From positions 13,508 to 77,507 of the IMG/VR virus record IMGVR_UViG_3300021255_003438: a DNA stretch of 64,000 nt. One strand, 5' to 3'. Source of the DNA: a virus (taxonomy: Duplodnaviria; Heunggongvirae; Uroviricota; Caudoviricetes). Of the stretch, positions 4,676-62,787 are shown piece by piece. How positions within the stretch are numbered: position 1 is the stretch's first letter; every line of letters begins with the position of its first letter. A model generated the notes under the pieces. The model was not told where the DNA came from and made no database searches. It saw nothing but the letters and a program-made list of their open reading frames with translations. The position numbers were made by a program, and so were the translations under genes.

Positions 4676-4703
4676 TCCTCCATGTTAATTTATGTTAACT
4701 GAT

Positions 4704-5927: not shown

Positions 5928-5962
5928 GCTTTATATATTTTGGTAATAATATAGGTGTTGAC

Positions 5963-6406
5963 CTATTTTTGAATGCTAATCGAAATATCTGGTTTAACAA
6001 CGAGTTCAAATTGATTAAAGTCTTTACCGCCTTCTTTTTCTTTAATATATCTTTGTTTTAAATCAAAATTTTCGTGTTCCCCTTCATTTATAAACAATTC
6101 AACATCAATAATAGTTGCCAACTTGAATACTGGCATACTTCTAAATAATGTTGTATTCCAATAAATCATATCAATTTTGTTTTTAGCAGCCTTTTTAGTA
6201 TTAAACAATTTCGCATTGTTAATGTTTTGGCTGTAACATTTAAAATAATATGCACCGCCATCGTAATACAATGGCTCTTCTCCTTTCCACCCATCAGCAA
6301 TGAATTTTGGGTCTTCTTCAAGATGATACTTTTTTTTACAATTAAGTAACTCTTGTATACCATCTTTGGACGGAAATAATTTAATAATATATTTTTTCAT
6401 ATTCAA
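5963..6406 (-). CDS. Hypothetical protein
   Basis: 147 aa. Uses a TAG stop. Confidence 0.4.
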   Translation of the reverse strand: MNMKKYIIKLFPSKDGIQELLNCKKKYHLEEDPKFIADGWKGEEPLYYDGGAYYFKCYSQNINNAKLFNTKKAAKNKIDMIYWNTTLFRSMPVFKLATIIDVELFINEGEHENFDLKQRYIKEKEGGKDFNQFELVVKPDISISIQK

Positions 6407-6474
6407 TAATTAAAATTTAAAAATATGTTAATTTTTGCTTGGGTCAACTGATATATCATTGCCTATATTTTTAA

Positions 6475-6846
6475 TTAATGTATACTTTGTACAAAAACAT
6501 TTGATGTTGTGTTTTTACCTCGTCTTATAAGTATGATTTGGTCTTTGGTAGAGTCTTTTAACTCAAATACTATGTGTTGATTAATCCTGTTTTTCAGCAA
6601 AATAAGTGCTTCAAAAGGATAAAGTGCTTTAACAGCTATTATCTTCCACTCACGGCTAACAATACTAGTCGAAGGATATTCTGTATCACTACTACAAGGA
6701 ATGTTTGAACTAACGCCAAAAAAAGTTTTACTAGAATGGAGTTGAAAGCACCATTCGTTAGTATCTAGTGCCACAATATCACCAATATTCGGCACACAAT
6801 CGATGTCTGTGTATATACCTAAACGATTTCTAATGTGTATTGTCAT
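6475..6846 (-). CDS. Hypothetical protein
   Basis: 123 aa ORF. Confidence 0.4.
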   Translation of the reverse strand: MTIHIRNRLGIYTDIDCVPNIGDIVALDTNEWCFQLHSSKTFFGVSSNIPCSSDTEYPSTSIVSREWKIIAVKALYPFEALILLKNRINQHIVFELKDSTKDQIILIRRGKNTTSNVFVQSIH

Positions 6847-7364
6847 CTTCTTGGTAGTTTCAGAACTTTAGGAGTGTTGTTCTTGGGGTTATGCTTCACC
6901 ATTGCAAGTCCATCAACGCCAACCAATATACTTCTTTTCAATTCGTCAATAAGTTGGCATATTATATTATGCCCCCTTTCGTGCATAATCATTCCAGCAA
7001 TGCGCCATTTCTTATTTTGCCAATATTTTTCAGGTGGTATTTCACCATTTGCAACAAATAAGTAGCCTCCAGCGTAATAACGGTTATTAAAATCACTTCT
7101 ACCCATCAATCCATTGGGGTATTGTTCTTCTGCCTTAGAAAAACCATGCCATTTCTTTCCCCATAAAGCTTCCATAGCATCTGAATAGGTTGAATATAAG
7201 CATCCGTAATTTACGCACTTAACTATGTCATTTATGTTAAAGCCGCTATTGTTAATAACCGTTTCCATAGTCGTAATCGTATCTATTGTATCTGTGTTTC
7301 TGATAGCTGTTGCTGCCATCTTTTGCCATATCCCCAAGGTAATAGAAAGATTCACAGCAGCCAA
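6843..7364 (-). CDS. Hypothetical protein with HExxH (MIMHERGHN) motif, possible zinc metallopeptidase
   Basis: 173 aa. The single HExxH motif is the only evidence. Confidence 0.3.
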   Translation of the reverse strand: MAAVNLSITLGIWQKMAATAIRNTDTIDTITTMETVINNSGFNINDIVKCVNYGCLYSTYSDAMEALWGKKWHGFSKAEEQYPNGLMGRSDFNNRYYAGGYLFVANGEIPPEKYWQNKKWRIAGMIMHERGHNIICQLIDELKRSILVGVDGLAMVKHNPKNNTPKVLKLPRR

Positions 7365-7424
7365 CCATCAAGAATATTATTAGAATGAGCCTAATAAACC
7401 ATCTGAAAAAATCTCTTCCCATAA

Positions 7425-8327
7425 CTACTTTGCCTCTACGTTGGTATAGTACCATTTCTCAAACTCGTTAAACTCTTCTTCAGAAAATTCTTTTTTCACA
7501 CGGTCAAGTTCGACATAATCACAATATTTAACTTTTACGATTACCCTATTGCCATTGCCACTGCAAAGAGGTACAACTGGACGTGCGACAATACCCTCTT
7601 CAATCATGGTTGGGTCAGCAGCCTTATCGTACTGAGTCGTAAAACCACTACGAACTTTGCGCTCAATTTCCTCAAGCGTCATTACACCTAGGAATGGAAC
7701 AGTCTCAAGCCCAAGACCCTTACAGAGAGAGTCACGAACATCCTTTGGAGTCCACCAGCCTTGCTGCTGGATGTCGAACACTACGAACCCATTTCCGTTC
7801 TGAATATAACGAGAGCCGCATTTCTGAATGCCAGTTCCGAAATACTCGCCATAGATGTAGATGGGGACTTCCTCAAGACGAACACCATACTGCCCTTCAC
7901 TTGTAGGAACTACAGTTAAAAGGCCAAGATGGTCTGACATATCCCAATACTCAACCTTGTTGGTGCTGCTATCCTTTACAGGGGCAAACCTAGCAGTCTC
8001 TTTTGGGAACATGGCCTTTAACTGAGGCTTGATACGCTCACCTATGGCTTGCAGCATTTCAAACTGACCATGCTGAGAATCAGCCTTATCCGTTTTACCA
8101 CCAACACGAATCTCACCAGTTGATGGGAAGTATGCAATCTTGGAGTTAGTTCCGTCAATCTTGGAATATGCCTCCCAAGGACAATTGAACAGATACTTAG
8201 CCTCTACATTGGAGAAGTTACCAATGATGATTTTGTTCTTGAACTTAAGCCAATCCTTGTTAGGACACTCCTTGCCATCGAAAATGTACCTTTTATATAG
8301 GGTATCAATCTTAGTATATGTATTCAT
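7425..8327 (-). CDS. ATP-dependent RNA ligase-like protein
   Basis: 300 aa. 'EAYSKIDGTNSKIAYF' carries the KxDG(T)N motif I of RNA/DNA ligases. TAG stop at 7425-7427. A host-type promoter lies just upstream at 8348-8379. Confidence 0.6.
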   Translation of the reverse strand: MNTYTKIDTLYKRYIFDGKECPNKDWLKFKNKIIIGNFSNVEAKYLFNCPWEAYSKIDGTNSKIAYFPSTGEIRVGGKTDKADSQHGQFEMLQAIGERIKPQLKAMFPKETARFAPVKDSSTNKVEYWDMSDHLGLLTVVPTSEGQYGVRLEEVPIYIYGEYFGTGIQKCGSRYIQNGNGFVVFDIQQQGWWTPKDVRDSLCKGLGLETVPFLGVMTLEEIERKVRSGFTTQYDKAADPTMIEEGIVARPVVPLCSGNGNRVIVKVKYCDYVELDRVKKEFSEEEFNEFEKWYYTNVEAK

Positions 8328-8347
8328 GTTTTCTAATTTTTTTTTTG

Positions 8348-8379
8348 CAAATATACGATAAACTTACGAAATAGCCAAA
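8348..8379 (-). promoter_or_regulatory. Bacteroidetes-type promoter
   Basis: caaatata at 8348-8355 and ccaaa at 8375-8379, spacer 19 nt. Confidence 0.55.
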
Positions 8380-8397
8380 TATGAAATGTTAAAAATG

Positions 8398-8922
8398 CTA
8401 AATATAGGTTTTATACTCTGCATAAGATATAAACATTCCCAAAACTATTGCCACAAGCAAAAGTGCTTTTATTGGAAGAATTATTGTTAAATAGCAAAAG
8501 AAAATCATCAGTCCAACAGTTGTTGTTATTACACCCCCAACCATTTTGTAGTGAACATCAGTATGCTTTGTTACAATTTCATTAGGATGGCTCTTAAAAT
8601 AGTCTTCGATGAATATGTCTTGCAACGATTCTATTGTCACTGGTTCTTTTACATACTTAATTTTTTTTGTCGGCAAACAATGAATAAGTTTTATCCCTTC
8701 CATGAACTCAGTTGGAGGAACGCTTGTTGTTGGAAATTTGACTTTATTCGTCCGTATTATGTAATCATGCCTTACTAGGAAAGAAAGATTATCATCATAA
8801 TAGTAATCGTAAAGGCTTTTATATGAAAGCATAAAACTTCCAAACAACTTTCTTTTTTTAAGAGACCTAAAAAAAGAAATGAAATGTTTTAAATATGGAC
8901 TAGAATGAATTCTTTTTTTCAT
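8398..8922 (-). CDS. Membrane protein
   Basis: 174 aa with C-terminal hydrophobic segments. Confidence 0.4.
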   Translation of the reverse strand: MKKRIHSSPYLKHFISFFRSLKKRKLFGSFMLSYKSLYDYYYDDNLSFLVRHDYIIRTNKVKFPTTSVPPTEFMEGIKLIHCLPTKKIKYVKEPVTIESLQDIFIEDYFKSHPNEIVTKHTDVHYKMVGGVITTTVGLMIFFCYLTIILPIKALLLVAIVLGMFISYAEYKTYI

Positions 8923-9143
8923 TTATAAAATAGGTTGCTAAATGGTTTTATAACACGTTTCCAATTAAACAATCTGTTAATGAAGCCTTCACTTTTCAAA
9001 TCATCAAACAATTCTTTTGCTTCGTTGAACTTTTGTTTGTATATGATTGTTTGATTTTTCTCTTCAATTAAAGAAGATTCCAAGGACTTAACTTTATCCT
9101 TAAGTCCTTGGTACTCTTCCATTGGAATTTCTATACGAGCCAT
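8919..9143 (-). CDS. Hypothetical small coiled-coil protein
   Basis: 74 aa ORF. Confidence 0.3.
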   Translation of the reverse strand: MARIEIPMEEYQGLKDKVKSLESSLIEEKNQTIIYKQKFNEAKELFDDLKSEGFINRLFNWKRVIKPFSNLFYK

Positions 9144-9742
9144 ACTCTTTCTGAATTTTCAATAAAATTAGTAAAGCTATTTGCTGTGTCTTCGGCTATA
9201 GCTGGGCTATATTCCTTCATCACTGCGAAATTAACATCAGGCATCGCTTTAACGCCATCTTTCACTGAGTCTGCAAGGCAATAGTCATATGCAAGGCCGC
9301 ATACATTAATGACTTGCGGTTTAATATAGTTGCAAAGGTTTACGATGAGGTCATGAGACTTTTCGTTCTTGAACACAGAATATTCCTCATGCTCTTCATT
9401 AAGACCCTTGGTGACTACAACATAATCAGCCTTAATTTCGTTGAGCGCGTCAAGAATCGGCTGATAGATAGCTGCTCCATGAGAGTGCTGAACACAGTGC
9501 ATTGGCCACATGCCGCCATTATCCTTAAACGAACAATGTGTGATAGGATGCCAATCAGCAGTTAGAATGATTTTTTCGTAATCCTTTCCGTGACCTCTGA
9601 TAAAGTCAGCCAAGTTATTCATTGCTCTCTCTGCACCATTTACAGGGAGTGTTCCACCCTCTAAAAAATCATATTGTGGGTCTACTACTAATAAAATTTT
9701 ACTTGTCATATTATTATTTGTTTTATTTTTCTTATAAATCAA
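9131..9742 (-). CDS. pncA: Nicotinamidase/pyrazinamidase (isochorismatase family)
   Basis: 'ILLVVDPQYDFLEGGTLPV', 'ADWHP', and a catalytic Cys context (NVCGLAYDYC). The start may be the internal Met at 9709. Confidence 0.75.
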   Translation of the reverse strand: MIYKKNKTNNNMTSKILLVVDPQYDFLEGGTLPVNGAERAMNNLADFIRGHGKDYEKIILTADWHPITHCSFKDNGGMWPMHCVQHSHGAAIYQPILDALNEIKADYVVVTKGLNEEHEEYSVFKNEKSHDLIVNLCNYIKPQVINVCGLAYDYCLADSVKDGVKAMPDVNFAVMKEYSPAIAEDTANSFTNFIENSERVWLV

Positions 9743-9983
9743 TAGAGTCTTCAGTTATGTCATAGGTGACACAACTGTTATGATACTTTTTCACAAATAG
9801 GTCGGTGCAATGACCATCTTCCTTTTTAGTGCCCTTAAATGGGCATTTCTTACATAATGTTCCCATGATTTATTCCTTTTTTGCAAATATATAAAAAATA
9901 TATTAAATATAAAAATATATTAATATATAATTTATTTATTTAATATAATTTAATAATATATATTAATTAATTAAGAGTCCAAC

Positions 9984-11381
9984 TCAAGTTGTTAGGCTCT
10001 TAATTTTATTCTCTACGACCTCAAAGCATTCATCTTTCGTAATATTTGGATTTTCGAAATAGGCATCTTTGACTGCCTCAAGCAGAACTCCAATTATCGG
10101 CCCACCTTTTAATTTAAATTCTGCCATAATGTCTTTTCCATTTATAGGCAGTTTGATGTTGGCCATCTTATCAATGTCCTCAAGCTCTTCTATTCTGTTA
10201 AGAAGGTCGTACACTTGTCGTTTTTTCTTGTCGTATGTGGAATGTAGGTTATTGGCGTTCATTAGGTCAACCACTGTTCCGATGTCGTTTCCGCATAGAT
10301 TCATGAACTTTCTGATTTTCTTATCTGGAGGTACTACGCCATCCGCATAGATTTTGAAAATCCTATGATATTCTATAGCAGTTTGTACGCTTTTAATGAT
10401 ATGGTTTGGAAACTTCATCATCTTCAAGTCTGCTGCTGCAATCTCTCCGCTAAAGTTATCAGGATTAACTGTTTTGTCCTTATCCGTTATAACCTTTCCA
10501 ACGTCATGGAATAATGCTGCCAATCTGCTTTCAAGGTATGGCTGCGTTTCGTCCAACACATTCATGGTATGGTCAAATGTTGTTACCATTGGGTTTTTAG
10601 ACTCATACGCAAAGTTAGTGTCGTATATATCAGGCATTACCTTGTTCAGCACGCCACAGTAATACATTTTCCTTATGCCAACGCTAGGCTTGCTGCATAA
10701 CAGAATTTTTGAAATTTCATCACTGATTCGTTCTTGTGATACGATTTCCAACCTATTTACGTTTTTAATCATACCAAGCCATGTGTCCTTATCAATACCC
10801 CATCCTAGACGAGTTGAGAAACGAATGACACGCATAATCCTCAATGGGTCATCATTGAACGTTATATCTGGGTCTGTTGGTGTTCGTATGATTTTAGCAC
10901 AAAGGTCAGAATATCCAGTGCCGTTAAAATCGCACAGTTTATCTTGGCTTATGTTGTAATATAAAGAATTGATTGTTAAATCTCTTCTTTTTGCGTCTTC
11001 TTCTATAGTTCCAAATACAGTCTCTGGATTCCTATTTTCTTTATGATACTGCTCCTTACGAGTCTGCACACATTCTATTTCAATGTCCTTAAACTCTTCG
11101 TGTTTATATAATTGGAATTTAGCAGTACCATAGGTCTCAAATATTACAGGATTTGTTGACGTAACAAAACATTGATGTTTCATCGTCATGTATGTGGAGA
11201 ATAGAAGTCCTCCATTTGGTATGTCAATTACCAAATCCAAATCCTTAATTGGAAGCCCTAAGATGCTGTCACGGACAGAGCCACCGACAACGTATACATG
11301 ATTGTCGAAGTGGGTGAACTTAATCGTTTCCCTTATTAGATTTAGAAGCTTTTTTATTTTCTCGTCCTTGAATATTTCCAT
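9984..11381 (-). CDS. cca: tRNA nucleotidyltransferase (CCA-adding enzyme) with HD domain
   Basis: 465 aa. 'VVGGSVRDSILGLPIKDLDLV' is the PolyA-polymerase head motif. 'LFHDVGK' is the HD motif. Confidence 0.8.
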   Translation of the reverse strand: MEIFKDEKIKKLLNLIRETIKFTHFDNHVYVVGGSVRDSILGLPIKDLDLVIDIPNGGLLFSTYMTMKHQCFVTSTNPVIFETYGTAKFQLYKHEEFKDIEIECVQTRKEQYHKENRNPETVFGTIEEDAKRRDLTINSLYYNISQDKLCDFNGTGYSDLCAKIIRTPTDPDITFNDDPLRIMRVIRFSTRLGWGIDKDTWLGMIKNVNRLEIVSQERISDEISKILLCSKPSVGIRKMYYCGVLNKVMPDIYDTNFAYESKNPMVTTFDHTMNVLDETQPYLESRLAALFHDVGKVITDKDKTVNPDNFSGEIAAADLKMMKFPNHIIKSVQTAIEYHRIFKIYADGVVPPDKKIRKFMNLCGNDIGTVVDLMNANNLHSTYDKKKRQVYDLLNRIEELEDIDKMANIKLPINGKDIMAEFKLKGGPIIGVLLEAVKDAYFENPNITKDECFEVVENKIKSLTT

Positions 11382-13774: not shown

Positions 13775-15154
13775 TTATCTGTTTGGGGTCGTTTCACCTA
13801 GATAGTTCGGCATTTCAAAATGCATTCTAACTGGTTCATATTCAATATGAGGTACTTGAATGTCAGCAGTTATAGTTGCTGCGATTTGGTTTACACCGTT
13901 CAGTGCTGTGTTGTCAATGAAATCCCTATCCATTTGTTGGCCAATTCTGCCACCAAATATATCATCAAGGGAATCATCATCGTCATTTGCCGCACCAACA
14001 GCACCTACTCCTTCCATAGGTTCGCCACCTTCTACTTCTTCCTCACCTATAAGCTCACCGTTCTCTACCTCATCCTCTTCAATGTCAAAGGCGTTTGTCA
14101 TTTCACTTCCTATGCTTTCAATTTTTTTAATAAGCTCATCCGTTACTTCTTTATTGTAGGAAATTTTGGTTGAAGAATCAAAATTTACTCCAAAATTAGC
14201 AGACACGCAATCATTGAAAGAATATGTTTCTTGTTTGCCTAGAGATTGGAACAGAATATCATTCACGATATTGTTGTGATTTGTTTTATATCTTGTGTAA
14301 AACCAAGTATATGGTTTTTTGTTTTTGCTAATAATCTTTTCATACACCTTATCCATGAGTCTTCTTTCATTAAGAATGTCCTCAAGGAGTGACTTGTCTT
14401 TCAAGGCCCAAGAACTCTTATTGAAGGAGTTGGTGCCAGGAAATGCAAACGATGGGCATGTGCTAGACACTATGCAAGCGATGTCATAGTCTTCTAATAT
14501 ACTATCAATCGCTTTTTCGTTGTAAACAAAACTTTCATCTTTCCAATACAGTTTCCTACCGATTCTTTCTTGCTGCGCCTTTTTCCATTCCCTATCCAAT
14601 GAAATGCTTCCGCCCAAACATAGGCAGTTGAATGATTCAAACTTAACTATTGAATAATCAGGTACTGTCTTCACATTTGACAGATTGATTTCTTCATTGT
14701 TGAACAAACTAGGGTTGTCGCTGTTTCCTCTGACAAACAGCACATGACAATTGTTATCACTTAAAACTGTATTGAAATTGTTAAACTTAGAAATGTAGAA
14801 AGATGTGTCTTTACTACCCAAACCACAATTTCCGCATACGATTATAATAGTGTCATTTAAGAAACCACGCATACTTGACATCATCTTTTTAAGCGATGGC
14901 CTAGAATGGTCAAATGCATGAGCGTGCAAACCAAAAGGATTGACAAAAGGGTTATTAAGTTGTTCTCTAAGTCTTTCCTCTTCTTTCCTTTTAAGCCTTT
15001 CTTGTCTTTCAACTTCTTTTGGATGAATTTCTTTTGATACGTTCTGTGTATTAGGCAGTTTTCTTATAACGTTTTCGATGAATTTGTCAAGGCCGTTTTC
15101 TATACTGCCACAAAGCACACAGTTATTAATCGGTTCGTAATCATAAATTTTCAT
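13775..15154 (-). CDS. Hypothetical protein with degenerate calcineurin-like phosphoesterase motifs and an acidic C-terminus. Start adjusted.
   Basis: 'IIIVCGNCG' and 'FVRGNSDNP' weakly resemble metallophosphoesterase motifs GDxHG and GNH[DE]. The ORF track gives 13775..15352, but a promoter at 15197-15228 lies inside, so the Met at 15154 (MKIYDYEP) is the likely start. Confidence 0.35.
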   Translation of the reverse strand: MKIYDYEPINNCVLCGSIENGLDKFIENVIRKLPNTQNVSKEIHPKEVERQERLKRKEEERLREQLNNPFVNPFGLHAHAFDHSRPSLKKMMSSMRGFLNDTIIIVCGNCGLGSKDTSFYISKFNNFNTVLSDNNCHVLFVRGNSDNPSLFNNEEINLSNVKTVPDYSIVKFESFNCLCLGGSISLDREWKKAQQERIGRKLYWKDESFVYNEKAIDSILEDYDIACIVSSTCPSFAFPGTNSFNKSSWALKDKSLLEDILNERRLMDKVYEKIISKNKKPYTWFYTRYKTNHNNIVNDILFQSLGKQETYSFNDCVSANFGVNFDSSTKISYNKEVTDELIKKIESIGSEMTNAFDIEEDEVENGELIGEEEVEGGEPMEGVGAVGAANDDDDSLDDIFGGRIGQQMDRDFIDNTALNGVNQIAATITADIQVPHIEYEPVRMHFEMPNYLGETTPNR

Positions 15155-15196
15155 ACTTGTTAGGTTTTTTAAAAATTCGACATATATTTCTTTTTG

Positions 15197-15228
15197 CAAA
15201 GATATGTTTTTTTTTCTTAATTTCCAAA
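15197..15228 (-). promoter_or_regulatory. Bacteroidetes-type promoter
   Basis: caaagata at 15197-15204 and ccaaa at 15224-15228, spacer 19 nt. Confidence 0.5.
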
Positions 15229-15290
15229 ATTTGAACAATAAAAAAATGAGTGATACTTTCAAAATAGCACCACTCATTTCTGTATGTAGT

Positions 15291-17333
15291 TTACATTGCT
15301 CTAGTAAGCTCGTATTCCAATGAGTCCTCCGTCTCAACCTCAACGTTGTCATTGAAGATGTCTTTGTTAGGTTTGATATACTCCTTAAGGTCTATCTTAC
15401 AAGACTTTGCGAGTTTCTTGTCCTCTTCCCTAACCTTAAGGTCAGGTCTCTGACCAATAATCTTCAATGCCTCAAGGTTGTTATTCACGATGCACTGTCC
15501 AAGTGCAGCGCAACCAAAATCATTAACGTTGTTGACGTTGACGTTCTTCTTTGCTGCAAGAACCTTCACAACCCACACTTGGCTTGGGAATTCACATGCC
15601 ACGTTAATAGCCGTATCGTGGTTAAGGTCAAGCGTATTGAAGTCGAATGTCTTGCTAGAAAGAACTGACTTAATCATGGTAGTAAGCAGTTTGTTGTCCT
15701 CCTTAGAAGTGACAATTTCATCACTGCCGTGCAGATAAAGAAGTGACTCAAGAAGTGTCTCGCCAAAGCCGTCTTCAATCTTAGAGTTGAACTTAGGATG
15801 GTTCACAATAGCATCGAAAAGCTTATACATCTTGTTGTTGATGGCAGAGAACACAGGAACTCTTGTGTTAAATTCATAGTTAACGTCAATGTTGTTACCC
15901 TCTTTATTAATAAGCTCAATTGCACCAAGCTCATCGTTCTCGTCAATCAGCTTGTGTAGCAAGATGGATGGGTCAATAGCCTCACGGTTCAGATATGCGT
16001 CACTTGAAATGCCAATCTTTGACAGATAGCCTTGCTTGGTCAAGTCTGCGCCGAATGTTTCAGTCGCACGAACCAAAGATAGTGCACCATATTGGTCTTT
16101 GCGGTACTGCATTGCAATCATGGACATGTCATCGTTGTAGTTGAGGTTGAAGTCCATAAAGAGATACAACTTATTATTGGTATCCACAGAGAAGTTTCCA
16201 CTCTTGATGAAACTGTGACCCACAAGCTTGTCAAATCCATTCTTGTTAAGGATGTTGATAATCAAACGGCCATCACCCTCGTATGCAATTGCATAGTTTG
16301 ATGGTTCTTTCTTTACCATTTCAAGAATGGATGCAATAGTCCAAGTGAAACCAATGTTCCTAGGCAGACGCATGAACTTGCTGGCCTTAACGCCAATCTT
16401 TGCAAGAAGCTTGTGGATGTTAAGAGTTTCACTACCTTGCTTGAAATCTTCCATCATGTCCTTGTTGTCACAAGTCTGAGCAATGATAATTCCACTACCA
16501 CCCTCAACTGTGAATCCAACGTGTGCGAAACAGTCAGTTTCCTTACGGCTGAAATCAAACAAGAAGTATTGGTCACGCTTGCCATCGTAACGTGTCACAT
16601 AATCTGAAAAGAAATGTGCCTCACGAGTAATGCACCACTGTGTACGGCCGCTGCCACAAAGCTTGTGGCTAGAATCGAATGACGGAACGCGAATAATAAC
16701 AACAGACCCTTCGTTGTACACGATTTCACAATCGCTAGCATTATGCTCAAGGTAACAAAGCATATCTTCCTTATCCCATTCATATGTCTCTTCAAGACAG
16801 CTATTGATTGCTGCTAGCAAAGAGTCAGCAGTTTTCAGTGCAGAGCAAGTGCTATAGAACTTGTTCTTGCGACCCATAGGCTTTTTATTGAAGAGTTTGA
16901 ATACATTGTACCATTTCTTAATCGTGGCATCGCTGTAAGCTTCGAGAGCCGTATATTCCTTATCAAGGAGTGCCTTGGTAAGAATCTTCCTTTGGTCAGT
17001 GTTAAAGTGCGAAATGATGTTCTTGATGAATGCCAATCTGTCAAGTCCTTCCATTTCCTTTTTCAACTGAGCAATACCTGATTTATTAGAGTAGGACACA
17101 ATGTTCTTTTTCGCAAGCTTACTGATGAGGTTCTGATTTTCAACAATCCAATCGTGAATCTGCTGTAAGTCCTCAAAAGTTAATGACTGCGAGAAAATCA
17201 TCTTAACAGCCCAATTTTGATAGTTGGTCTGTCCATCGAACATTTCTACTACGCTAATAAACAATTTGTTAGTCTCTGGATTGATTTGATACTTATCAAT
17301 CAAGGGCTGCATCTGTTTTTTGTTGTAAGTCAT
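15291..17333 (-). CDS. Large ankyrin-repeat protein with an N-terminal domain paralogous to 17655..20174
   Basis: 680 aa. The C-terminus has ANK-like repeats (G.TLLESLL..., HDTAINVACEF...NDFGCAALGQC). 'TQWCITREAHFFSDYV...QYFLFDFS...HVGFT' aligns with 'TNWCISKNKSYWNNYI...QYMIFDFS...IVGFT' in the next gene. Confidence 0.5.
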   Translation of the reverse strand: MTYNKKQMQPLIDKYQINPETNKLFISVVEMFDGQTNYQNWAVKMIFSQSLTFEDLQQIHDWIVENQNLISKLAKKNIVSYSNKSGIAQLKKEMEGLDRLAFIKNIISHFNTDQRKILTKALLDKEYTALEAYSDATIKKWYNVFKLFNKKPMGRKNKFYSTCSALKTADSLLAAINSCLEETYEWDKEDMLCYLEHNASDCEIVYNEGSVVIIRVPSFDSSHKLCGSGRTQWCITREAHFFSDYVTRYDGKRDQYFLFDFSRKETDCFAHVGFTVEGGSGIIIAQTCDNKDMMEDFKQGSETLNIHKLLAKIGVKASKFMRLPRNIGFTWTIASILEMVKKEPSNYAIAYEGDGRLIINILNKNGFDKLVGHSFIKSGNFSVDTNNKLYLFMDFNLNYNDDMSMIAMQYRKDQYGALSLVRATETFGADLTKQGYLSKIGISSDAYLNREAIDPSILLHKLIDENDELGAIELINKEGNNIDVNYEFNTRVPVFSAINNKMYKLFDAIVNHPKFNSKIEDGFGETLLESLLYLHGSDEIVTSKEDNKLLTTMIKSVLSSKTFDFNTLDLNHDTAINVACEFPSQVWVVKVLAAKKNVNVNNVNDFGCAALGQCIVNNNLEALKIIGQRPDLKVREEDKKLAKSCKIDLKEYIKPNKDIFNDNVEVETEDSLEYELTRAM

Positions 17334-27095: not shown

Positions 27096-27298
27096 ATTTT
27101 TCATCAAAAAAGGTATCAAATACACTTATTATTGATATAAATCATTATATAAAAAATGAGCACCCATCGCTGGATGCTCTTGAAAAATCTTATCGCAACA
27201 AGAAAGATTTTAAAAAACAAGGAACAATAATGGTCGGATTCTAACCGACACAAGATTGATTTGCAATCAATTGAGTTAACTTGCTGTATGTTCCTTTG

Positions 27299-35286: not shown

Positions 35287-35398
35287 TCCATATATTTTTT
35301 TTTTATTAAACTTTTTGCAAATATATAAAAAAAAATTGGAAGATACAAATATATCTCCCAACTTTAATTTTGTTTAACAATTTGCCTATATGGATGTG

Positions 35399-35472
35399 TG
35401 AGCGTAGTGGGATTCGAACCCACGAACAACGGTTTTAGAGACCGCCCCAATAGACCACTCTAGCATACGCCC
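35399..35472 (-). tRNA. Candidate suppressor tRNA (anticodon CTA, would read UAG)
   Basis: Acceptor GGGCGTA/TACGCTC. T-arm GTGGG-TTCGAAT-CCCAC. Anticodon stem (G)CGGT/ACCG(T) with loop CTCTAAA (U33, CUA, A37). The D-arm is irregular. Own promoter at 35481-35511. Confidence 0.45.
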
Positions 35473-36177: not shown

Positions 36178-36429
36178 ATGATATATTTTTTAATTTGTTT
36201 GTTATTATTAATGAATTTAAATTACTTCACTTATATTTCCCATTCAAACTAAAATATATCAGGACCACGAATCTTTTTCAGCTACCAGAATTCGTCAGAA
36301 ATCTACCAAAAACTGTTCTTTTTCATAATGTTAATTAATTTAATTTGTTATTAAAAAACGGAAGCTCTTTTTCTAGAATAAATTGATTACAAGTCAAGCC
36401 CTATTAGAAATTGCTGTAAGCTTCCTTAC

Positions 36430-36650: not shown

Positions 36651-37076
36651 GATTGAGCTAATATTGAGTTATATTAAAACTTACGGATATACTTTATCAG
36701 GAATCTGGCTTTCTCTGCTGAAGACTTATTTTTACCCATCCACTCATAGGAACTTCACAGAGTGCTTCACACACCATTAGGTAGCATCGAATGAGATAGT
36801 ATTCCATACGCTAGTGGAACTATATAGACATTGTTACATACCTCAATCTACATTCTTCTTAGTGTGTACCCTTGCGACAAATGTACCCACGCTTGTATAT
36901 CTACGCCTCTATCGTAAGTTTTGTGTTGAAGGGAACTTTTTTTTTCGGTATTCGTTTCAAGCAAATTCCATATAGTCATTGCTGTAAGTTCCCGCTATTG
37001 GTTAAGGAATTGGAAACGGTAGAGCCACACTACGAAACTCTCTACCTACTCATCGTAGCATTATCCAAAACCTTAG

Positions 37077-37686: not shown

Positions 37687-37811
37687 CAGGGACTGATGGA
37701 CTCGAACCACCATTTTTCATTAACAGTTAAAGGCGTAATCTGTTCCGCAGTCGAGACTACGTTAATTCCTTAAATCGTAACAAACCACTCTTACCCTTGA
37801 GCTAAATCCCT
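37687..37811 (-). ncRNA. Long tRNA-like gene (~125 nt) with acceptor + D-arm + T-arm and ~50 extra nt
   Basis: Acceptor AGGGATT/AGTCCCT. D-arm GCTC-AAGGGTAA-GAGT. T-arm GGTGG-TTCGAGT-CCATC. Extra internal hairpins, including AACAG...CTGTT. Confidence 0.35.
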
Positions 37812-38954: not shown

Positions 38955-39067
38955 TATGTTAAAAATAAGGAAACGTTTTTGTTTTTTCAAGAAACATTTA
39001 CATACTTAAGCTAGTTGCTGTGCGTTTCCACTATTCTATGAATTTTATTATCTTTTTTCCAACTGCG

Positions 39068-39690: not shown

Positions 39691-40391
39691 GTTAAGTGGA
39701 GCTAGAGTGAAATAAATCTCATTAAACTCCGTACTTTTCCACATTTGTAAATATTTATATTAAAATCAATATTACTATGTCAAAAAAATATAACTTTAAT
39801 CGTAAACTAGGTACAGTTAAATGTGATAATTGCGGCAAAGAATTCCAAAAGCCCCAATCAGAAATTAACCGTAACGCTAAACTCAATAGAAATAACTACT
39901 GCTGTAGAGAATGTTCTGCTGAAGGGGTTAGAAAAACTAGATTGAATTTACCTTATAAACCAGCATCTAAAAAAATGTTAGAACATTTAAAAGATATTTG
40001 TGGAAATCATCGTGATGATTACACTCCATTCAGATATTCTTTAAGATGCGCTAAAAGACGTTTTAAAGACGTTAATGTAACTTTGGAAGACTTAAAAGAA
40101 ATATGGGAAAAACAAAATGGTGTTTGCCCATACACTGGTTTTAAACTAATTCTTCCTGAAAACTCTAATGTGAATAAAATCGATTTTTTTCATAGAGCAT
40201 CTTTAGATAGAATAGATTCTTCACTTGGTTACATTAAAGGTAACATTCAATTTATTTCTACACCTATTAACTTGATGAAACAAACACAAAGTGATGCAAG
40301 CGTTAAACAATTCCTAAAAGAAATTTCAAGTTATACATCAAAACTTTTATAAGTGTCTGATTTTCAAGTAGTTAAGTGGAGCTAGAGTGAA
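39691..40391 (+). mobile_element. Free-standing HNH homing endonuclease insertion flanked by a 21-bp direct repeat derived from a tRNA 3' end
   Basis: Identical gttaagtggagctagagtgaa at 39691-39711 and 40371-40391. The right copy continues into an intact T-arm (GAGTG-TTCGATT-CACTC). The only sizeable plus-strand gene in the window. Confidence 0.55.
39777..40352 (+). CDS. HNH homing endonuclease
   Basis: 191 aa. 'FFHRASLDRIDSSLGYIKGNIQFIS...N' matches the HNH_3 motif. N-terminal Cys pairs (CDNCGK...CCREC). Confidence 0.65.
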   Translation: MSKKYNFNRKLGTVKCDNCGKEFQKPQSEINRNAKLNRNNYCCRECSAEGVRKTRLNLPYKPASKKMLEHLKDICGNHRDDYTPFRYSLRCAKRRFKDVNVTLEDLKEIWEKQNGVCPYTGFKLILPENSNVNKIDFFHRASLDRIDSSLGYIKGNIQFISTPINLMKQTQSDASVKQFLKEISSYTSKLL

Positions 40392-40762
40392 TCGAACACT
40401 CGTCCATACTACCATCCCATAAGAGATTATACAAGCTTTAAAATTGGAAAGTTGACATTGCTGTCCTCACCGCCACCTCATTTTGCGAAAACGAGGAAAA
40501 CTAGGGGGATGACTAGAGTCATCAGTCCACCATTCGGTTTTAAGAAACCGACAAAAAGTTGCTAGGATGTTCTGTTCCTAAGAGCCTAGCCTCTCGGCTT
40601 ACATTACGCAGCTATTGCGTACTCGTAAGCAGGAGTATCAATATACTCGCCGTTTATTTTTTTCTTGCTATTTCTAGTGTATGCCCACTGCTTGTCTCTT
40701 ACCAAATGCATAGCTGTCTATACCATTGTAGCCCCATTGTGTCAAAGAACTCTTTCTTGTTG

Positions 40763-41052: not shown

Positions 41053-41123
41053 ATTTTTATTTTTAAAAAACGGAAACGATTCAATTTAAAGTTGAACTAT
41101 TAGAAATTGCTGTATGTTTCCTT

Positions 41124-45370: not shown

Positions 45371-45442
45371 TGCCCCCAGAGAATTTTGCAATCTCGACCC
45401 CATGTTTAAGAGACACGTGCTCTACTTCTGAGCTATGGAAGC
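45371..45442 (-). tRNA. tRNA-Lys (anticodon CTT)
   Basis: Acceptor GCTTCCA/TGGGGGC (two G-U pairs). D-arm GCTC-AGAAGTA-GAGC. Anticodon stem CGTGT/ACATG with loop CTCTTAA. T-loop-like TTGCAAAAT. Confidence 0.5.
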
Positions 45443-45535: not shown

Positions 45536-45607
45536 TGCGCCCAGAGGATTCTGCCACCTCGACTCCTAGTTTAAAAGACTAGTGCTCTACTTCTGAGCTA
45601 TGAGCGC
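45536..45607 (-). tRNA. tRNA-Lys (anticodon TTT)
   Basis: Acceptor GCGCTCA/TGGGCGC. D-arm GCTC-AGAAGTA-GAGC. Anticodon stem CTAGT/ACTAG with loop CTTTTAA. Confidence 0.55.
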
Positions 45608-52040: not shown

Positions 52041-52459
52041 ATAAAAAGGAAACGTAGGTTTTCGAGCTTGCTTATTCTGCTATTACTATGAGGGTGGTAT
52101 TTCAAGATTGACTCCACACATCCTAGCGAATATGCTTCAACGTCTCCCACCTATCCTACACTCATATGCCATTGCTACTGTTATTCACAAGAGTAACACG
52201 TTATGCAGCCCTAGCCTTATCTTTTGGAATTGTAACGAGTTAAGATTTCATATGCTGTACGTTTCCGATATATTGTGTCAATTGCGACAAAAGAAAAAAG
52301 GAACGACCAATTTTATGTCTTGGCTCGACATTCGCCCCGAAGAGCATAGGTAAGTGCCTCGCAATGATGATTTAACGCTTCTCTTACCTTCGTCTAGTCT
52401 GAATTAAAAATGTGTTCTTATAAATTTATTTTAATCAAACTGCTGTACGTTCCTACTTG

Positions 52460-54957: not shown

Positions 54958-55231
54958 AATTTCTTGAGCAGTGTAGGAGATTCGAACTCCCTCCTTGACC
55001 TTGGCAAGGTTATATGCTACCATTAACACCAACACTGCAAAGTCAGTTTTTATAACCGTAAAACTGAAAAACTTCCTCCACCTACGATGAGGCAATAGTT
55101 TGAATCCCTTCAGGGACTACTGACGTTACGTTGAGCCTCAAATCTCTTTTGATAGTCTTTTTTAACGTGCAGATAATCTAGCAAGTAGTATGTACACGAT
55201 ATTTTAAGGAAACGTTTGTTGTTTATTTTTT

Positions 55232-55320
55232 AGTGCTCTAACCAACTGAGCTACCACGCTATGTTATTATGATTTAGTAGCGTGGACAGGATTCGAACCT
55301 GTGACCCCTAGCTTGAAATG
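55232..55320 (-). ncRNA. Permuted/split tRNA-like unit A: 3' half then 17-nt linker then 5' half
   Basis: On the sense strand: ...GGGTC-ACAGG-TTCGAAT-CCTGT-CCACGCT-A, then CTAAATCATAATAACAT, then AGCGTGG-TA-GCTC-AGTTGGTTA-GAGC-A, then an A-rich tail. The acceptor strands are perfectly complementary (7/7). Confidence 0.45.
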
Positions 55321-55358
55321 CTTTTTAAACGATGTACTTTGCTGTACGTTTCCACTTG

Positions 55359-57074: not shown

Positions 57075-57100
57075 AACATTACCTTAAAAAACGGATACTT

Positions 57101-57165
57101 TTGTTTAATATACCAATACCCACGAATGGGTGCTTAAACCATTTGTTTAGGTTTAGCTTGGATTC
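57101..57165 (-). ncRNA. Permuted/split tRNA-like unit C (3' half then 8-nt linker then 5' half)
   Basis: On the sense strand: CTTGG-TTCGAAT-CCAAG-CTAAACC-T, then AAACAAAT, then GGTTTAA-GC-ACCC-ATTCGTG-GGT. Acceptor strands pair 6/7. Confidence 0.4.
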
Positions 57166-57359
57166 GAACCAAGAAATTGTAACAAAATTACATTGCTGTA
57201 AGTATCCTTGCGTTAATTATATCAACTATCACGTTTGGACTGCTACTAGAGACCTTACCCCCATCCATACCTCTCTAGGAAGATAACCTAGCACATTCTT
57301 TCAATTTCCATGACCCCACAGTTTATTGGACTTACGTGGCACGATTATTTGATATATAG

Positions 57360-57432: not shown

Positions 57433-57460
57433 ATTTTTCGGAAACATTTTTTATTTTTTA

Positions 57461-57530
57461 CATTGCTCTACCAACTGAGCTACAACGAGCTATTGCCCAT
57501 TGAAGAGACTCGAACTCTTGACCTACGGAT
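57461..57530 (-). ncRNA. Permuted/split tRNA-like unit B (3' half then 5-nt linker then 5' half)
   Basis: On the sense strand: AAGAG-TTCGAGT-CTCTT-CAATGGG-C, then AATAG, then CTCGTTG-TA-GCTC-AGTTGGTA-GAGC-A, then an A-rich tail. Acceptor strands pair 7/7 with two G-U. Confidence 0.4.
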
Positions 57531-57732
57531 TACAAATCATAATAAAAACGTTTGCATTGCTGTATGTTTCCTTTTATGTTTTATGAAACTGTTTTGGCTC
57601 TATGCTTTCTGTTCTATCACGTTCCAATACGTAATCCCTAAGAAGGGTTAGGCTTAACGAATTATTCTTTTACATTTCATTCGCCCTCTTGCTACGATAG
57701 CAAGACTGTGATTACTCACCGTTCAGTCTCAT

Positions 57733-57810
57733 TGAGCAAGCCTATGGAATCGAACCATTCTTTCCCTCGGATGAGGGCTGTGCTAGCCATTACACCAAAG
57801 CCGCATTTTA
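57733..57810 (-). ncRNA. tRNA-like element (T-arm AATGG-TTCGATT-CCATA). Anticodon region is a tetraloop hairpin.
   Basis: T-arm present. CCCTC-ATCC-GAGGG hairpin. Poor acceptor pairing. Confidence 0.25.
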
Positions 57811-58090: not shown

Positions 58091-58242
58091 ATGTTTAAAA
58101 CTAGGTGTTGCAACATTAGAAATGGGCTTACAATATTCGACATTCGGCTCAACCGCTCTAGATTTCGGTATCATAGCCTCCTCCTCGTAGCCTCTTACTG
58201 CCATTCTAAACCTAGTTTTATGAAAACGGAATCTATAAACTT

Positions 58243-58313
58243 TCGGTAGGTTGAGACTCGAACTCAAATCTCTTAGTAAAAGCCAAGGCTCTAACCCATT
58301 GAGCTACCCATCG
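58243..58313 (-). ncRNA. tRNA-like gene (canonical D- and T-arms, unresolved anticodon stem)
   Basis: D-arm GCTC-AATGGGTTA-GAGC. T-arm TTGAG-TTCGAGT-CTCAA. Acceptor pairs 6/7. Confidence 0.4.
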
Positions 58314-58340
58314 CGTTACCTTATGCTGTTAGATTCCTTT

Positions 58341-58421
58341 GTCGGAAGGGTAGGATTCAAACCTACGAACTCTGCTATATCAACACGGCTAGTTTGCAGA
58401 ACTGCTGCCGTTTCCTTCCGA
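58341..58421 (-). ncRNA. tRNA-like gene (perfect acceptor TCGGAAG/CTTCCGA, T-arm GTAGG-TTTGAAT-CCTAC), internal arms unresolved
   Basis: 81 nt. GCAG-TT-CTGC hairpin inside. Confidence 0.35.
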
Positions 58422-60174: not shown

Positions 60175-60262
60175 AAGTAAAGGGAACATTTTTAACCGTA
60201 TTCTTAAAACCCAAATTTAATTACTTGTTAATTCAATAATACTTGCTGTAAGTTCCCACTTG

Positions 60263-60892: not shown

Positions 60893-61321
60893 TTATTCCC
60901 CATTATGTTCTTCCCAAGAGGTTCTTATTTCGTCAGTAACCTTTTGGTATATGTCCGTGCCCTTTGCAAGGCCATAGACTTTCTTTGTCCATCCGAAAAC
61001 GGACGTTCCAGTGCTACCAATCTTAAACCAAAGTTCATGATTGTGGCTTGAACTTGATATTTCCCACACTTGGTGCACCATAGGATATTCGTTGCCGTAT
61101 CCGTCATCAATAAGGCAGAATACACAATCGCCTCTTTTAATGTCAATAGGAACACAAGGTTTAATCTTGCAGTATTCCATGTGGTTAATCAATGGACGAA
61201 GTGATGTTCCAGCTTCCCAATGATATACGGTTTCACCATGTTTAAGGGCTTCTTCAATTTCCTTATAGTCTTGAACTACCCTTATTCCATCTATTTCTTT
61301 TGGTTCATTTACTATCCTCAT
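60893..61321 (-). CDS. Hypothetical protein
   Basis: 142 aa ORF. Confidence 0.4.
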   Translation of the reverse strand: MRIVNEPKEIDGIRVVQDYKEIEEALKHGETVYHWEAGTSLRPLINHMEYCKIKPCVPIDIKRGDCVFCLIDDGYGNEYPMVHQVWEISSSSHNHELWFKIGSTGTSVFGWTKKVYGLAKGTDIYQKVTDEIRTSWEEHNGE

Positions 61322-62787
61322 AACATTTCAAATAATTTATAAAGTTCGTTTGTGTCATCATCGACTGCTGTTTTTCTCTTCTTTTTTACGCCACTGAGTT
61401 TACACATTGTGTCCAAGTCTTCTTTCATAATTGCAATAGAAGAGTTAAGAGACTTTACATAGTTGTTCAGAGAGTTGACCATCATGTCAACTGATGCCAC
61501 ACTACCATTGAAATTCATTCGTGGCAAAGAAGGAATTGTGGGCATTTTAATGTTGTAGTTTTTCATTCTGAAAACTGCTGCTTCTGCCCTTTTCCTTTGT
61601 TCTTTGATTCTTCTTTCCTCTGCTTCTATTCTTTTACGTTTTTCTTCCTCTTCTCTTCTAGCCCTTTCAGCAGCTTCTTTAGCTTTCCTTTCCTTTTCAG
61701 CTTCGTACTCTTCAATGGTAATTGCGCCTAGTTCATCCCAACTAATTGTGAAATATTCATTTGGGTTAACGCCATCGAAATAAGCTCTATCAACACCAAA
61801 ACATCTATCAATTGAGTCTTCTACACCTTTTTTCGTTAATTTGATTAGAATGTAAATAGTATCCTCAGATGATATAAAATTGCCATGATTGAACAGCATA
61901 CCTTTTGGATAAACAATTTGAATATCCAAATTTGTTTTATCTTTGGTGATATAACCGTTGCCATATACTAATGGTTCAATTGTCTGAATCCTTACACTCT
62001 TCTCAAACTGCTTTTCGGTAATAAGATGACCACTAGGAGTTAGGACATACCCATCAAAGTAATCCTTAAACCCATCAAGTCTTATAAGTATGTTCCTAAC
62101 GGTGTTATCAATGTCTGACAATGGAGTAGTACCTAAGTTGTTCTTATCAAATGGTATAATGTCTTTAACTCTTTTCCAAGCTAGTTTCTTAGGAAAAAGC
62201 TGCAAACCAGTCTGATATTCAATTCCAAGCTGTGCACAGTCATTTTTGGATAATGTAAATATTAATCCTTTTTCTCCACCCACTTGTTTTACGATGACAG
62301 AATCAACTTTAACTCCATGAAACTCATCAACCATACCAACAAGTTCATAGACTTTCTCTTCCATCTTAAACCCATCGCAAGCTACACCCCTTAAAGCATA
62401 CTTCTCACCTTCAATAAACTTAGGTATCATATGCTTTGGTTCATTTACCACGCTCATGTCGGTAAAGTCAACAGCTTCAAACAACTCTTTAGGCTGAGAA
62501 AATAGCTTCTCAACCTTTGGCGTGCTGCGTTTGCGAGGACAGCCTATAGCTTCCAAAGCAGCGTTGTTAATTTCGTCTACCACCTTAAAAACGGTGCTAT
62601 TACTATTCCACAAACTCATTATATTAGTATCTACTATATCAGTCAACGGAAAAACTATTCCATCATCTGTGCTTTTTAATAAAAGGTTATTACCTTGCGC
62701 ATCTGTTACTATCTTAACAACACCTAACCCACTAGGCAGTTTAGTCCTAGTGGGAGGTGGTATTCTAGATGGAGTTATTTTTGCCAT
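61318..62787 (-). CDS. Hypothetical protein with a charged coiled-coil segment
   Basis: 489 aa. 'EAEKERKAKEAAERARREEEEKRKRIEAEERRIKEQRKRAE'. Confidence 0.45.
   Translation of the reverse strand: MAKITPSRIPPPTRTKLPSGLGVVKIVTDAQGNNLLLKSTDDGIVFPLTDIVDTNIMSLWNSNSTVFKVVDEINNAALEAIGCPRKRSTPKVEKLFSQPKELFEAVDFTDMSVVNEPKHMIPKFIEGEKYALRGVACDGFKMEEKVYELVGMVDEFHGVKVDSVIVKQVGGEKGLIFTLSKNDCAQLGIEYQTGLQLFPKKLAWKRVKDIIPFDKNNLGTTPLSDIDNTVRNILIRLDGFKDYFDGYVLTPSGHLITEKQFEKSVRIQTIEPLVYGNGYITKDKTNLDIQIVYPKGMLFNHGNFISSEDTIYILIKLTKKGVEDSIDRCFGVDRAYFDGVNPNEYFTISWDELGAITIEEYEAEKERKAKEAAERARREEEEKRKRIEAEERRIKEQRKRAEAAVFRMKNYNIKMPTIPSLPRMNFNGSVASVDMMVNSLNNYVKSLNSSIAIMKEDLDTMCKLSGVKKKRKTAVDDDTNELYKLFEML

Follow-up and report, generated by a model that had tools for sequence, protein, structure and literature searches.

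Three permuted tRNA-like units of a phage genome as probable Y RNA-like tRNA mimics on an ACAGCAA handle

What kind of gene is a tRNA-like unit that has its 3' half upstream of its 5' half? Three such units lie in a stretch of 64,000 nucleotides (the window) from a virus of the Caudoviricetes, IMG/VR record IMGVR_UViG_3300021255_003438, positions 13,508 to 77,507. An initial annotation proposed either permuted tRNA genes or a designed, anticodon-less tRNA-like molecule in two pieces. We consider, with a probability of about 0.8, that the units are genes for two-module, Y RNA-like non-coding RNAs of the YrlA type. YrlA is a bacterial Y RNA. Its ends form the stem that binds Ro60, and its effector module is a tRNA mimic (PMC4201824; crystal structure 10.1101/312249). 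The idea of a tRNA-like molecule that is no normal tRNA was close to this reading; the permuted tRNA genes were not. We observed the architecture of the units, their covariation, their membership in an RNA family and a Ro-like gene in the same phage.

Architecture and conservation of the three units

The minus strand carries all the tRNA calls of the window (32 by ARAGORN and 36 tRNA/tmRNA calls by Rfam), and therefore the units were read on this strand. The three units are present there as first described. Each one runs from the variable region through the T-arm to a 7-nt acceptor 3' strand and the discriminator. After a loop of 5-17 nt, it continues with the complementary acceptor 5' strand, positions 8-9 and the D-arm. 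The acceptor strands pair with the same values as reported before: 7/7 in unit 1, 7/7 with two G-U in unit 2 (CAATGGG/CTCGTTG) and 6/7 in unit 3 (CTAAACC/GGTTTAA). The A-rich tails after the 5' halves are also real.

The anticodon arm is different. The units had been described as lacking it. However, a 2-bp hairpin with a 7-nt loop stands directly upstream of positions 41-43 in every unit (AUUUCAA, UUUGUAA and AUUUUGU, respectively). The three bases after the D-arm, positions 27-29, pair with positions 41-43. Therefore, the chain break is at 29/30, within the 5' strand of the anticodon stem, and not after about nucleotide 26. The units thus hold the greater part of an anticodon arm. The extents given earlier are too short. 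Outside them lie an 8-bp stem between leader and trailer (GGAAACGT/ACGTTTCC in unit 1, GGAAACAT/ATGTTTCC in unit 2, GGATACTT/AAGTATCC in unit 3) and the sequence ACAGCAA, which comes immediately after this stem in all three. The features are the following, with the minus strand written as (-).

55208-55353 (-): unit 1, complete, probable Y RNA-like tRNA mimic from stem to stem; fold z = -3.93
55346-55353 (-): unit 1, 5' arm of the terminal stem, GGAAACGU, pairing with ACGUUUCC at 55208-55215 (8/8 Watson-Crick)
55339-55345 (-): unit 1, ACAGCAA, internal loop adjoining the terminal stem, invariant in the family
55311-55321 (-): unit 1, mini hairpin GC-AUUUCAA-GC, tRNA positions 30-40, anticodon-type loop UUC
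55308-55310 (-): unit 1, positions 41-43 (UAG), with partner 27-29 (CUA, 55231-55233) after the D-arm
55286-55302 (-): unit 1, T-arm ACAGG-UUCGAAU-CCUGU
55254-55285 (-): unit 1, closed acceptor stem, with 3' strand CCACGCU at 55279-55285 and A73 at 55278
55261-55277 (-): unit 1, acceptor closing loop of 17 nt, followed by the 5' strand AGCGUGG at 55254-55260 (7/7 pairs)
55235-55251 (-): unit 1, D-arm GCUC-AGUUGGUUA-GAGC, preceded by U8 and A9
57440-57571 (-): unit 2, complete, probable Y RNA-like tRNA mimic; stem GGAAACAU/AUGUUUCC, ACAGCAA at 57557-57563, z = -2.36
57541-57548 with 57448-57455 (-): unit 2, second helix, UUUUUAUU with AAUAAAAA
57528-57538 (-): unit 2, hairpin GA-UUUGUAA-UC
57503-57519 (-): unit 2, T-arm
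57483-57502 (-): unit 2, acceptor
57465-57480 (-): unit 2, D-arm
57461-57463 (-): unit 2, positions 27-29 (AUG)
57093-57207 (-): unit 3, divergent member; stem GGAUACUU/AAGUAUCC, ACAGCAA at 57193-57199, z = -3.23
57180-57190 (-): unit 3, hairpin UA-AUUUUGU-UA
57157-57173 (-): unit 3, T-arm
57134-57156 (-): unit 3, acceptor (6/7)
57118-57131 (-): unit 3, atypical D-arm without G18G19
57114-57116 (-): unit 3, positions 27-29 (UUG)

Compared with dinucleotide shuffles, the fold is more stable in 3/3 units (z = -3.9, -2.4 and -3.2). In their native order, the units are called neither by ARAGORN nor by Rfam at gathering thresholds. When the halves are rejoined in silico at 29/30, ARAGORN reports a canonical tRNA-Glu(UUC) from unit 1 and tRNA-Thr(UGU) from unit 2. 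It makes no call for rejoined unit 3.

The search for conserved copies in related phages, proposed with the first description, gave a positive result. A blastn search of GenBank phages with the 3.5-kb region found no close relative, only tRNA-Gly matches to crAss001-like phages. IMG/VR holds orthologues of unit 1 in loci L092, L088, L033 and L035, and one of unit 2 in L088 (5393-5263). The changes are compensatory. The unit 1 acceptor CCACGCT/AGCGTGG is CCTCCCC/GGGGAGG in L088, and the helix between 27-29 and 41-43 goes from CTA/TAG to GTA/TAC. The loop changes among these orthologues: L092 and L088 have AUUCCAA, L033 has AAUCCAA, and L035 has lost the 5' strand of the hairpin.

In a broader pattern scan of IMG/VR, many large viral contigs show this architecture, and their stem arms vary freely. 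The first pattern used, GGAAACNTACAGCAA, gave mostly chance matches and needed filtering. The first finder of 8-bp stems was too lenient, with a chance closure expected at about 40%. Among the pattern-selected hits, the stem closes in 42/134, against 13-18/134 in shifted controls, which is a moderate enrichment. Because of this and the lenient finder, we rely on a set of loci selected by protein and on a covariance model.

A register-fixed alignment of 30 members has 94.4% of its cells paired, compared with 60.9% when shuffled and about 40% in a slid register. Both-sided changes are present in 28/29 pairs. The rows of this alignment were partly chosen by pairing, and these values are to be read beside the protein-selected counts, RNAalifold and the model. 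With no structure given, RNAalifold predicts the terminal stem, T-arm, closed acceptor and D-arm from 16 RNAs next to Ro-like genes at independent loci. The covariance model (R1) was built from those 16 RNAs, and the window was scanned with filters off. Its three best matches in the window are the three units, all of them full-length: unit 2 with 68.8 bits, unit 1 with 68.7 and unit 3 with 41.8 (E-values of 1e-15 for units 1 and 2, and 1e-8 for unit 3). The other handle RNAs of the window, described below, obtain 15-27 bits. At real tandem tRNA junctions, R1 gives partial matches only (model positions 46-105).

The Ro-like protein and the relation to YrlA

The RNAs of the pattern-selected IMG/VR loci have proteins of 400-720 amino acids near them. 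In this group, 12/33 match Pfam DUF2828 and 11/33 match DUF7788, which is of the von Willebrand factor A (vWA) type. A hidden Markov model (HMM) of the protein finds it in 36 loci. Every classified unit in these loci shares the strand of the gene, and the two are often 170-540 nt apart. Since the first collections were selected by RNA features, the linkage was re-tested on loci picked by the protein alone. This unbiased set consists of 80 IMG/VR viral loci with the Ro-like protein (DUF2828 plus vWA), and its counts are given below.

ACAGCAA occurrences: 233 on the gene strand, 21 on the opposite strand (about 30 expected per strand)
Loci with at least one ACAGCAA: 78/80 on the gene strand, 19/80 on the opposite strand
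ACAGCAA with a closing 8-bp stem: 144 on the gene strand, 4 on the opposite strand
ACAGCAA with a closing stem and an enclosed T-loop: 42 on the gene strand, 0 on the opposite strand

Of the 144 closed handles near Ro-like genes, the majority have no T-loop. Isolated phages show the same linkage. Mycobacteriophage Faith1 has three tandem ACAGCAA RNAs from 50 nt past its Ro-like gene, and one of them is permuted and tRNA-like, with a CUGUUAA hairpin. Likewise, the Felix O1-like phage VpaE1 has three ACAGCAA RNAs at the start of its tRNA array.

The protein family is large, with at least 6,903 metagenomic proteins. By tblastn, the protein is in 710 GenBank phage records, and the mycobacteriophage entries are annotated 'Ro-like RNA binding protein'. 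Hundreds of sequenced phages have it, among them jumbo phages, Felix O1-like phages and phages of Listeria, Staphylococcus and Campylobacter. The sole significant full-length PDB matches of its AlphaFold model (pLDDT 80.7) are the Ro60 of Thermus phage phiLo (9l5y; E 4.8e-7, probability 1.0). Every other match is confined to the vWA domain.

The phiLo Ro60, to which the protein family linked with the units is structurally most similar, binds two phage Y RNA-like RNAs via a CGAA loop and recruits host PNPase (PMC12135203). It is a phage Ro-type ring protein, with HEAT-like repeats and a vWA domain, and the genes of its RNAs (Yrl1 and Yrl2; PDB 9L5Y, 9KOP) are adjacent. These RNAs resemble the units in having the terminal stem by an internal loop with a short conserved motif, which in phiLo is needed for binding. 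In contrast, their motif is CGAA, and they are simple hairpins with no described tRNA-like module.

The phage of the window also has a Ro-like gene. Among the window open reading frames (ORFs) of at least 90 amino acids, Pfam, PHROGs and hhalign found no member of the family, including the Ro-sized ones at 61318-62787 and 13775-15352. The contig of the window has no exact match in IMG/VR. The gene is in an ENA contig (L323, 201 kb), which was found via a 489-amino-acid protein of the window. This contig has 99.99% identity to the window over 11.5 kb and 100% identity over 1.2 kb upstream. About 7 kb upstream of the gene for the 489-amino-acid protein, and on the same strand, it encodes a DUF2828/DUF7788 protein of 557 amino acids at L323 1394-3067. 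The match of this protein to the family by hhalign is 99.9% (E 5e-31) and includes the vWA DxSGS motif. In extrapolated window coordinates, the gene is at about 69721-71394 (-), 5.7 kb past the window edge.

The units are full members of the ACAGCAA-handle RNAs of phage DUF2828-type Ro-like proteins, a family that is delimited here. Its invariant ACAGCAA comes 0-1 nt past an 8-bp terminal stem with covarying arms. Their nearest described relative is YrlA (RF02553), present in Salmonella, Mycobacterium smegmatis, other bacteria and some phages. A permissive Rfam scan aligns YrlA to units 1 and 2 in full length (model positions 1-114), with 39.8 bits (E 3e-6) and 34.1 bits (E 1e-4), respectively. 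YrlA and the units have in common the paired ends that carry the Ro-binding module. They also share the order of the rest: variable region, T-arm, a closed acceptor-like stem-loop, UA, D-arm and a strand back to the stem. The T and D arm sequences are tRNA-like in both, with an atypical D-loop in unit 3. In both, a Ro-type gene is on the same strand and a genome holds several Y RNAs. ACAGCAA sits where YrlA has its CGAA-type motif.

YrlA lies beside Ro60 genes in 254 bacteria and 22 phages. Binding by Ro60/Rsr in vivo and the tRNA modifications pseudouridine 55 and dihydrouridine are counted among its features (Chen et al. 2014, PMC4201824). The YrlA of M. smegmatis has a 7-bp acceptor, as the units have. 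In vivo, RNase P cleaves this RNA and CCA is added to it, and both halves remain attached to Ro60 (PMC4201824; 10.1101/312249).

Several points weigh against this identity. Units 1 and 2 fall well short of the 69 bits that Rfam sets as gathering score for YrlA, and for unit 3 there is no YrlA match at all. The leaders of units 1-3 do not contain the Ro-binding motif GNCGAAN0-1G, or CGAA, and have ACAGCAA in its place. A role of ACAGCAA as protein contact is suggested by its position and by the linkage to the gene. The units keep a 7-nt anticodon-type hairpin; published YrlA is described without an anticodon loop. With the chain entering at 29/30, a three-way junction is left in the units, whereas YrlA replaces the whole anticodon arm. 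The partner protein is DUF2828/DUF7788 in Pfam and not TROVE. Neither the Pfam TROVE model nor a sequence-profile PDB search links DUF2828 to Ro60, that of phiLo included, so that this relation is at the fold level only. Finally, the units are inside a tRNA array, 12-14 kb downstream of the Ro-like gene, compared with a distance of typically 4 kb or less in YrlA. As regards membership in YrlA itself, the features that fail are the CGAA-type motif and the Rfam threshold, and the proximity to a TROVE gene is doubtful.

These data suggest how the RNAs could work. The first module would be a handle, in which the 5' and 3' ends pair as the 8-bp stem and ACAGCAA follows as an internal loop. By analogy with the CGAA loop of canonical Y RNAs, it is a putative docking site for the Ro60-like protein of the phage, with its DUF2828 helical domain and vWA domain. 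The second module would be the tRNA mimic, which the chain enters and leaves via the 5' strand of the anticodon stem, between 29 and 30. This would give the gene order observed, in which the remainder of the anticodon arm and the variable region come first, then the T-arm and the acceptor 3' strand, and, past the closing loop, the acceptor 5' strand and the D-arm. The RNAs might be cut out of a long minus-strand transcript of the tRNA array and held through the handle by the Ro-like protein. An L-shaped tRNA look-alike could then be shown to a partner that recognizes tRNA. Candidate partners are modification enzymes, RNase P, the CCA-adding enzyme and host factors, e.g., PNPase or tRNA-directed nucleases. 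Because the acceptor has 7 bp and a discriminator, a cut by RNase P in the closing loop and the addition of CCA are plausible. The product would be a nicked two-piece RNA, kept together by the handle. The family is possibly processed in this way, as in M. smegmatis. A decoding role on the ribosome is not expected for these RNAs and seems unlikely.

Less likely readings: permuted tRNA genes, decoys and remnants of tRNA genes

Circularly permuted tRNA genes reportedly occur in the red alga Cyanidioschyzon merolae, some green algae and archaea. In the C. merolae type, a bulge-helix-bulge where leader and trailer join is cut by the tRNA splicing endonuclease, and a circular intermediate leads to a tRNA that decodes. 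The units resemble these genes. The 3' half is upstream of the 5' half, a short intervening sequence links the acceptor strands, leader and trailer pair, and units 1 and 2 give canonical cloverleaves once rejoined at 29/30. If they were true permuted genes, they would yield functional tRNA-Glu, tRNA-Thr and tRNA-Lys. The leader-trailer stem would align 29/30, an endonuclease would cut off the handle and a phage RNA ligase would circularise the rest. RNase P or RNase Z and the CCA-adding enzyme would then open the acceptor loop. The phage does encode enzymes for parts of this route: the two RNA ligase-family proteins (210-896 and 7425-8327) and the CCA-adding enzyme (9984-11381) of the initial annotation were confirmed. 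Across the family, the helix of 27-29 with 41-43 is complete in 25/43 parsed members, compared with 8.8 with permuted partners. The whole split anticodon stem of 5 bp is present in 15/43 (2.5 expected with permuted partners), and all 15/15 full-stem members have U33 and a purine at 37, against a background of 30%. CCA is encoded at 74-76 in 7/54 copies where 0.7 are expected (P ~8e-6), at this offset only.

Other observations go against a tRNA product, and we regard it as quite improbable. The handle is common to cargo that is not tRNA (a 23S fragment and short hairpins) and to tRNA-likes of normal order. It tracks the gene of a Ro-like RNA-binding protein, not that of a nuclease. With such different cargo in one scaffold, a common handle is more likely than a tRNA-splicing signal. 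Between ACAGCAA and position 30 lie anything between 2 and about 25 nt. Inspection by eye shows no bulge-helix-bulge, and no ribozyme family matches. No splicing endonuclease or RtcB has a Pfam match in the 64-kb window plus about 20 kb of flanks. Many members are without the hairpin or have the break elsewhere: in L119, L124 and L195 the D-arm is followed by a complete anticodon arm, and L131 lacks one. Nor is the anticodon conserved: while the rest of the body is maintained, the orthologues of unit 1 show UUC, UCC, AAUCCAA or a lost hairpin. Ordinary tRNA-Glu(UUC), tRNA-Thr(UGU) and tRNA-Lys(UUU) are already in the phage. In 27/50 copies, N73 is able to pair with N-1, which favours a closed stem. 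The tRNA-like features agree with an origin in tRNA genes and with selection that keeps the shape of a tRNA faithfully. The YrlA architecture, the handle with non-tRNA cargo, the link to a Ro-like protein and the unconserved anticodon speak against the claim of red-alga-type permuted tRNA genes new for phages, and a headline of first permuted tRNA genes in a phage is unsupported.

A related permuted arrangement is the two-piece tmRNA (RF04321, RF01851), where the T-arm and acceptor also lie upstream of the acceptor 5' strand. Its models match the units locally with 15-19 bits, on the T-arm and acceptor only (thresholds 47-70). The units differ in having no mRNA-like tag region and no pseudoknots.

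The anticodon-type loops could have a purpose of their own. The RNAs may be Y RNA-like decoys or adaptors tethered to Ro, whose loops (Glu, Thr, Lys and others) lure host enzymes directed at tRNA. For example, anticodon nucleases of defence systems might be titrated, or delivered to a Ro-like particle and its nuclease partner. A subset of members keeps the anticodon-loop signature, the loops differ between copies and between phages, and the same handle also carries stand-alone anticodon-type hairpins. Genes for RNA repair and NAD+ counter-defence abound in the surrounding genome; the tRNAs and RNA repair of jumbo phages have been discussed as a counter to tRNA cleavage (PMC7824862). However, the anticodon hairpin is dispensable in many members, its own stem has just 2-3 bp, and the sequence names no specific nuclease target. 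As an account of the units, this function appears improbable to us.

Another proposal is that the units are functionless remnants of tandemly duplicated tRNA genes in decay, and the initial annotation had named such recent decay products as the alternative. The succession of T-arm, acceptor, spacer, acceptor and D-arm does look like a junction of two tRNAs. R1 matches real tandem junctions in part, and YrlA itself has been suggested to derive from dimeric tRNA transcripts (10.1101/312249). The present state of the units refutes this alternative, which is hardly credible: the permuted order is conserved and under selection. Their acceptor strands are complementary and change in compensation between phages, the terminal stem is conserved and the motif invariant. 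Orthologues are retained across divergent phages and are tied to one protein family, and the units score in full length with R1, unlike real tRNA junctions. Decay is plausible only as their evolutionary origin.

Two further candidates were rejected. A retron-like reading was considered, with an AGC triplet after the inverted-repeat stem. It was dropped because the cargo, with its T and D loops, is conserved as RNA and because the linked protein resembles Ro and not a reverse transcriptase. Small self-cleaving ribozymes, or a permuted intron around the tRNA, were discarded because there is no Rfam ribozyme match at E <=5 and the flanks are too short.

Other handle RNAs and genome surroundings

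The scaffold of stem, ACAGCA(A/T/G), cargo and closing stem, often followed by a T-run, is present in at least 12 copies on the minus strand of the window, between 27 and 60 kb. The arms covary. Besides the three units, the handle RNAs are the following.

58228-58337 (-): GGAAUCUA-ACAGCAU ... UAGAUUCC, tRNA-like of normal order with a 6-nt anticodon loop (ARAGORN 'tRNA-???')
52048-52266 (-): GGAAACGU-ACAGCAU ... ACGUUUCC, then a U-run; the cargo includes a 23S rRNA-like fragment
52299-52454 (-): AGGAACGU-ACAGCAG ... UCGUUCCU, with a cargo of 120-150 nt conserved between related phages
36360-36425, 27220-27295, 36931-36993, 38969-39029, 41060-41121 and 60182-60257 (-): short handle RNAs, R1 15-21 bits (weak)

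The RNA at 58228-58337 is overlapped by weak matches that extend upstream (R1 at 58265-58404 with 26.9 bits and Rfam YrlA at 58255-58397 with 24.3 bits). Beside the Ro-like genes of two other loci (L241:5299-5416 and L242:4060-4175), the handle replaces the acceptor stem of a module with D-arm, anticodon arm and T-arm.

The cargo at 52087-52166 (-) is an 80-nt, near-perfect copy of positions 2131-2210 of the bacterial 23S rRNA model (57-63 bits, E 1e-16). We take these positions, by E. coli 23S, to be the L1-stalk region. The whole RNA has the appearance of an rRNA mimic carried by a handle of the Ro type. The cargo of the RNA at 52299-52454 has no match in Rfam, and its relatives are in L035 (8244-8072), L088 (1735-1563) and L092 (10376-10234). 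The six short RNAs have as sole cargo a hairpin whose 7-nt loop is of the anticodon type (CU-NNN-AA). L075, L083, L033 and L035 hold similar short RNAs.

As a class, Y RNA-like tRNA mimics were described in 2014 for bacteria and some phages (PMC4201824). The ACAGCAA handle where CGAA would be canonical, the retained split anticodon arm and the presence of at least 12 handle RNAs with varied cargo in one window appear to be undescribed. A literature search, which did not cover the 2014 supplements, found no description of an ACAGCAA RNA family or of an RNA partner of DUF2828, and some ACAGCAA members may be already listed there as phage YrlA. The terminal stem with ACAGCAA is a simple signature for the RNA partner of a very common phage protein, Ro-like/DUF2828, and current Rfam models overlook this RNA. 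With it, dozens of RNAs in phage tRNA islands that are so far 'odd tRNA-like' or lie unannotated between genes can be given a label. Tractable systems for the function of the phage Ro particle are mycobacteriophage Faith1 and the Felix O1-like coliphages.

The kept anticodon loops and the rRNA-like cargo suggest a role of the Ro particle tied to the host translation apparatus or to its defence nucleases. A wider proposal, tentative and more doubtful than the identity of the units, is that phage DUF2828/vWA proteins use an undescribed class of ACAGCAA-handle Y RNAs. In large phages, this class would have diversified into mimics of the translation apparatus that tether or decoy host factors. The panel of mimics may comprise the tRNA look-alikes with anticodon loops, stand-alone anticodon hairpins, tRNA-likes of normal order and the 23S L1-stalk copy. 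Their targets may be host factors directed at tRNA or ribosomes, e.g., defence nucleases, PNPase or the ribosomal protein uL1.

The Ro-like gene of this phage is followed directly by the gene for tyrosyl-tRNA synthetase and after it by those for NAD synthase, SSB and TelA (L323 1394-4677, extrapolated to about 68100-71400, -). A gene for a sigma-70-type factor lies upstream of it. In Listeria phage LMTA-148 (L239), an RNA similar to ROOL (1460-2011; 90 bits, gathering score 99.1) is about 1 kb upstream of the DUF2828 gene, and RtcB ligase genes are about 1.3 kb downstream.

At the other end of the window (210-11381, -; also L320), the two RNA ligase-family proteins and the CCA-adding enzyme, which has an HD domain, are grouped with NADAR, NAPRTase, NUDIX, HIT and CinA. 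Metallophosphatase, cytidylyltransferase-like and PARG-like proteins are encoded just outside the window. Large phages typically carry such RNA-repair and NAD+ genes for counter-defence.

A canonical Rsr-type motif, GGCGAAUG (GNCGAANG), is located at 57678-57685 (-), about 110 nt upstream of unit 2. Its spacer, 57572-57740, is unannotated and has about 170 nt. This type of motif is not enriched in the window (15 occurrences against 12.3 expected). Further unannotated non-coding spacers are at 55039-55207 and 57208-57358.

The tRNA island also contains a complete one-piece tmRNA at 40374-40735 (-). A tRNA with anticodon CUA, of the amber-suppressor type and called 'Pyl' by ARAGORN, is at 35398-35472 (-). 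Two tRNAs, at 45371-45442 and 45536-45607 (-), are found by Rfam and not by ARAGORN. An Rfam tRNA match of 125 nt at 37687-37811 (-) may hold an intron.

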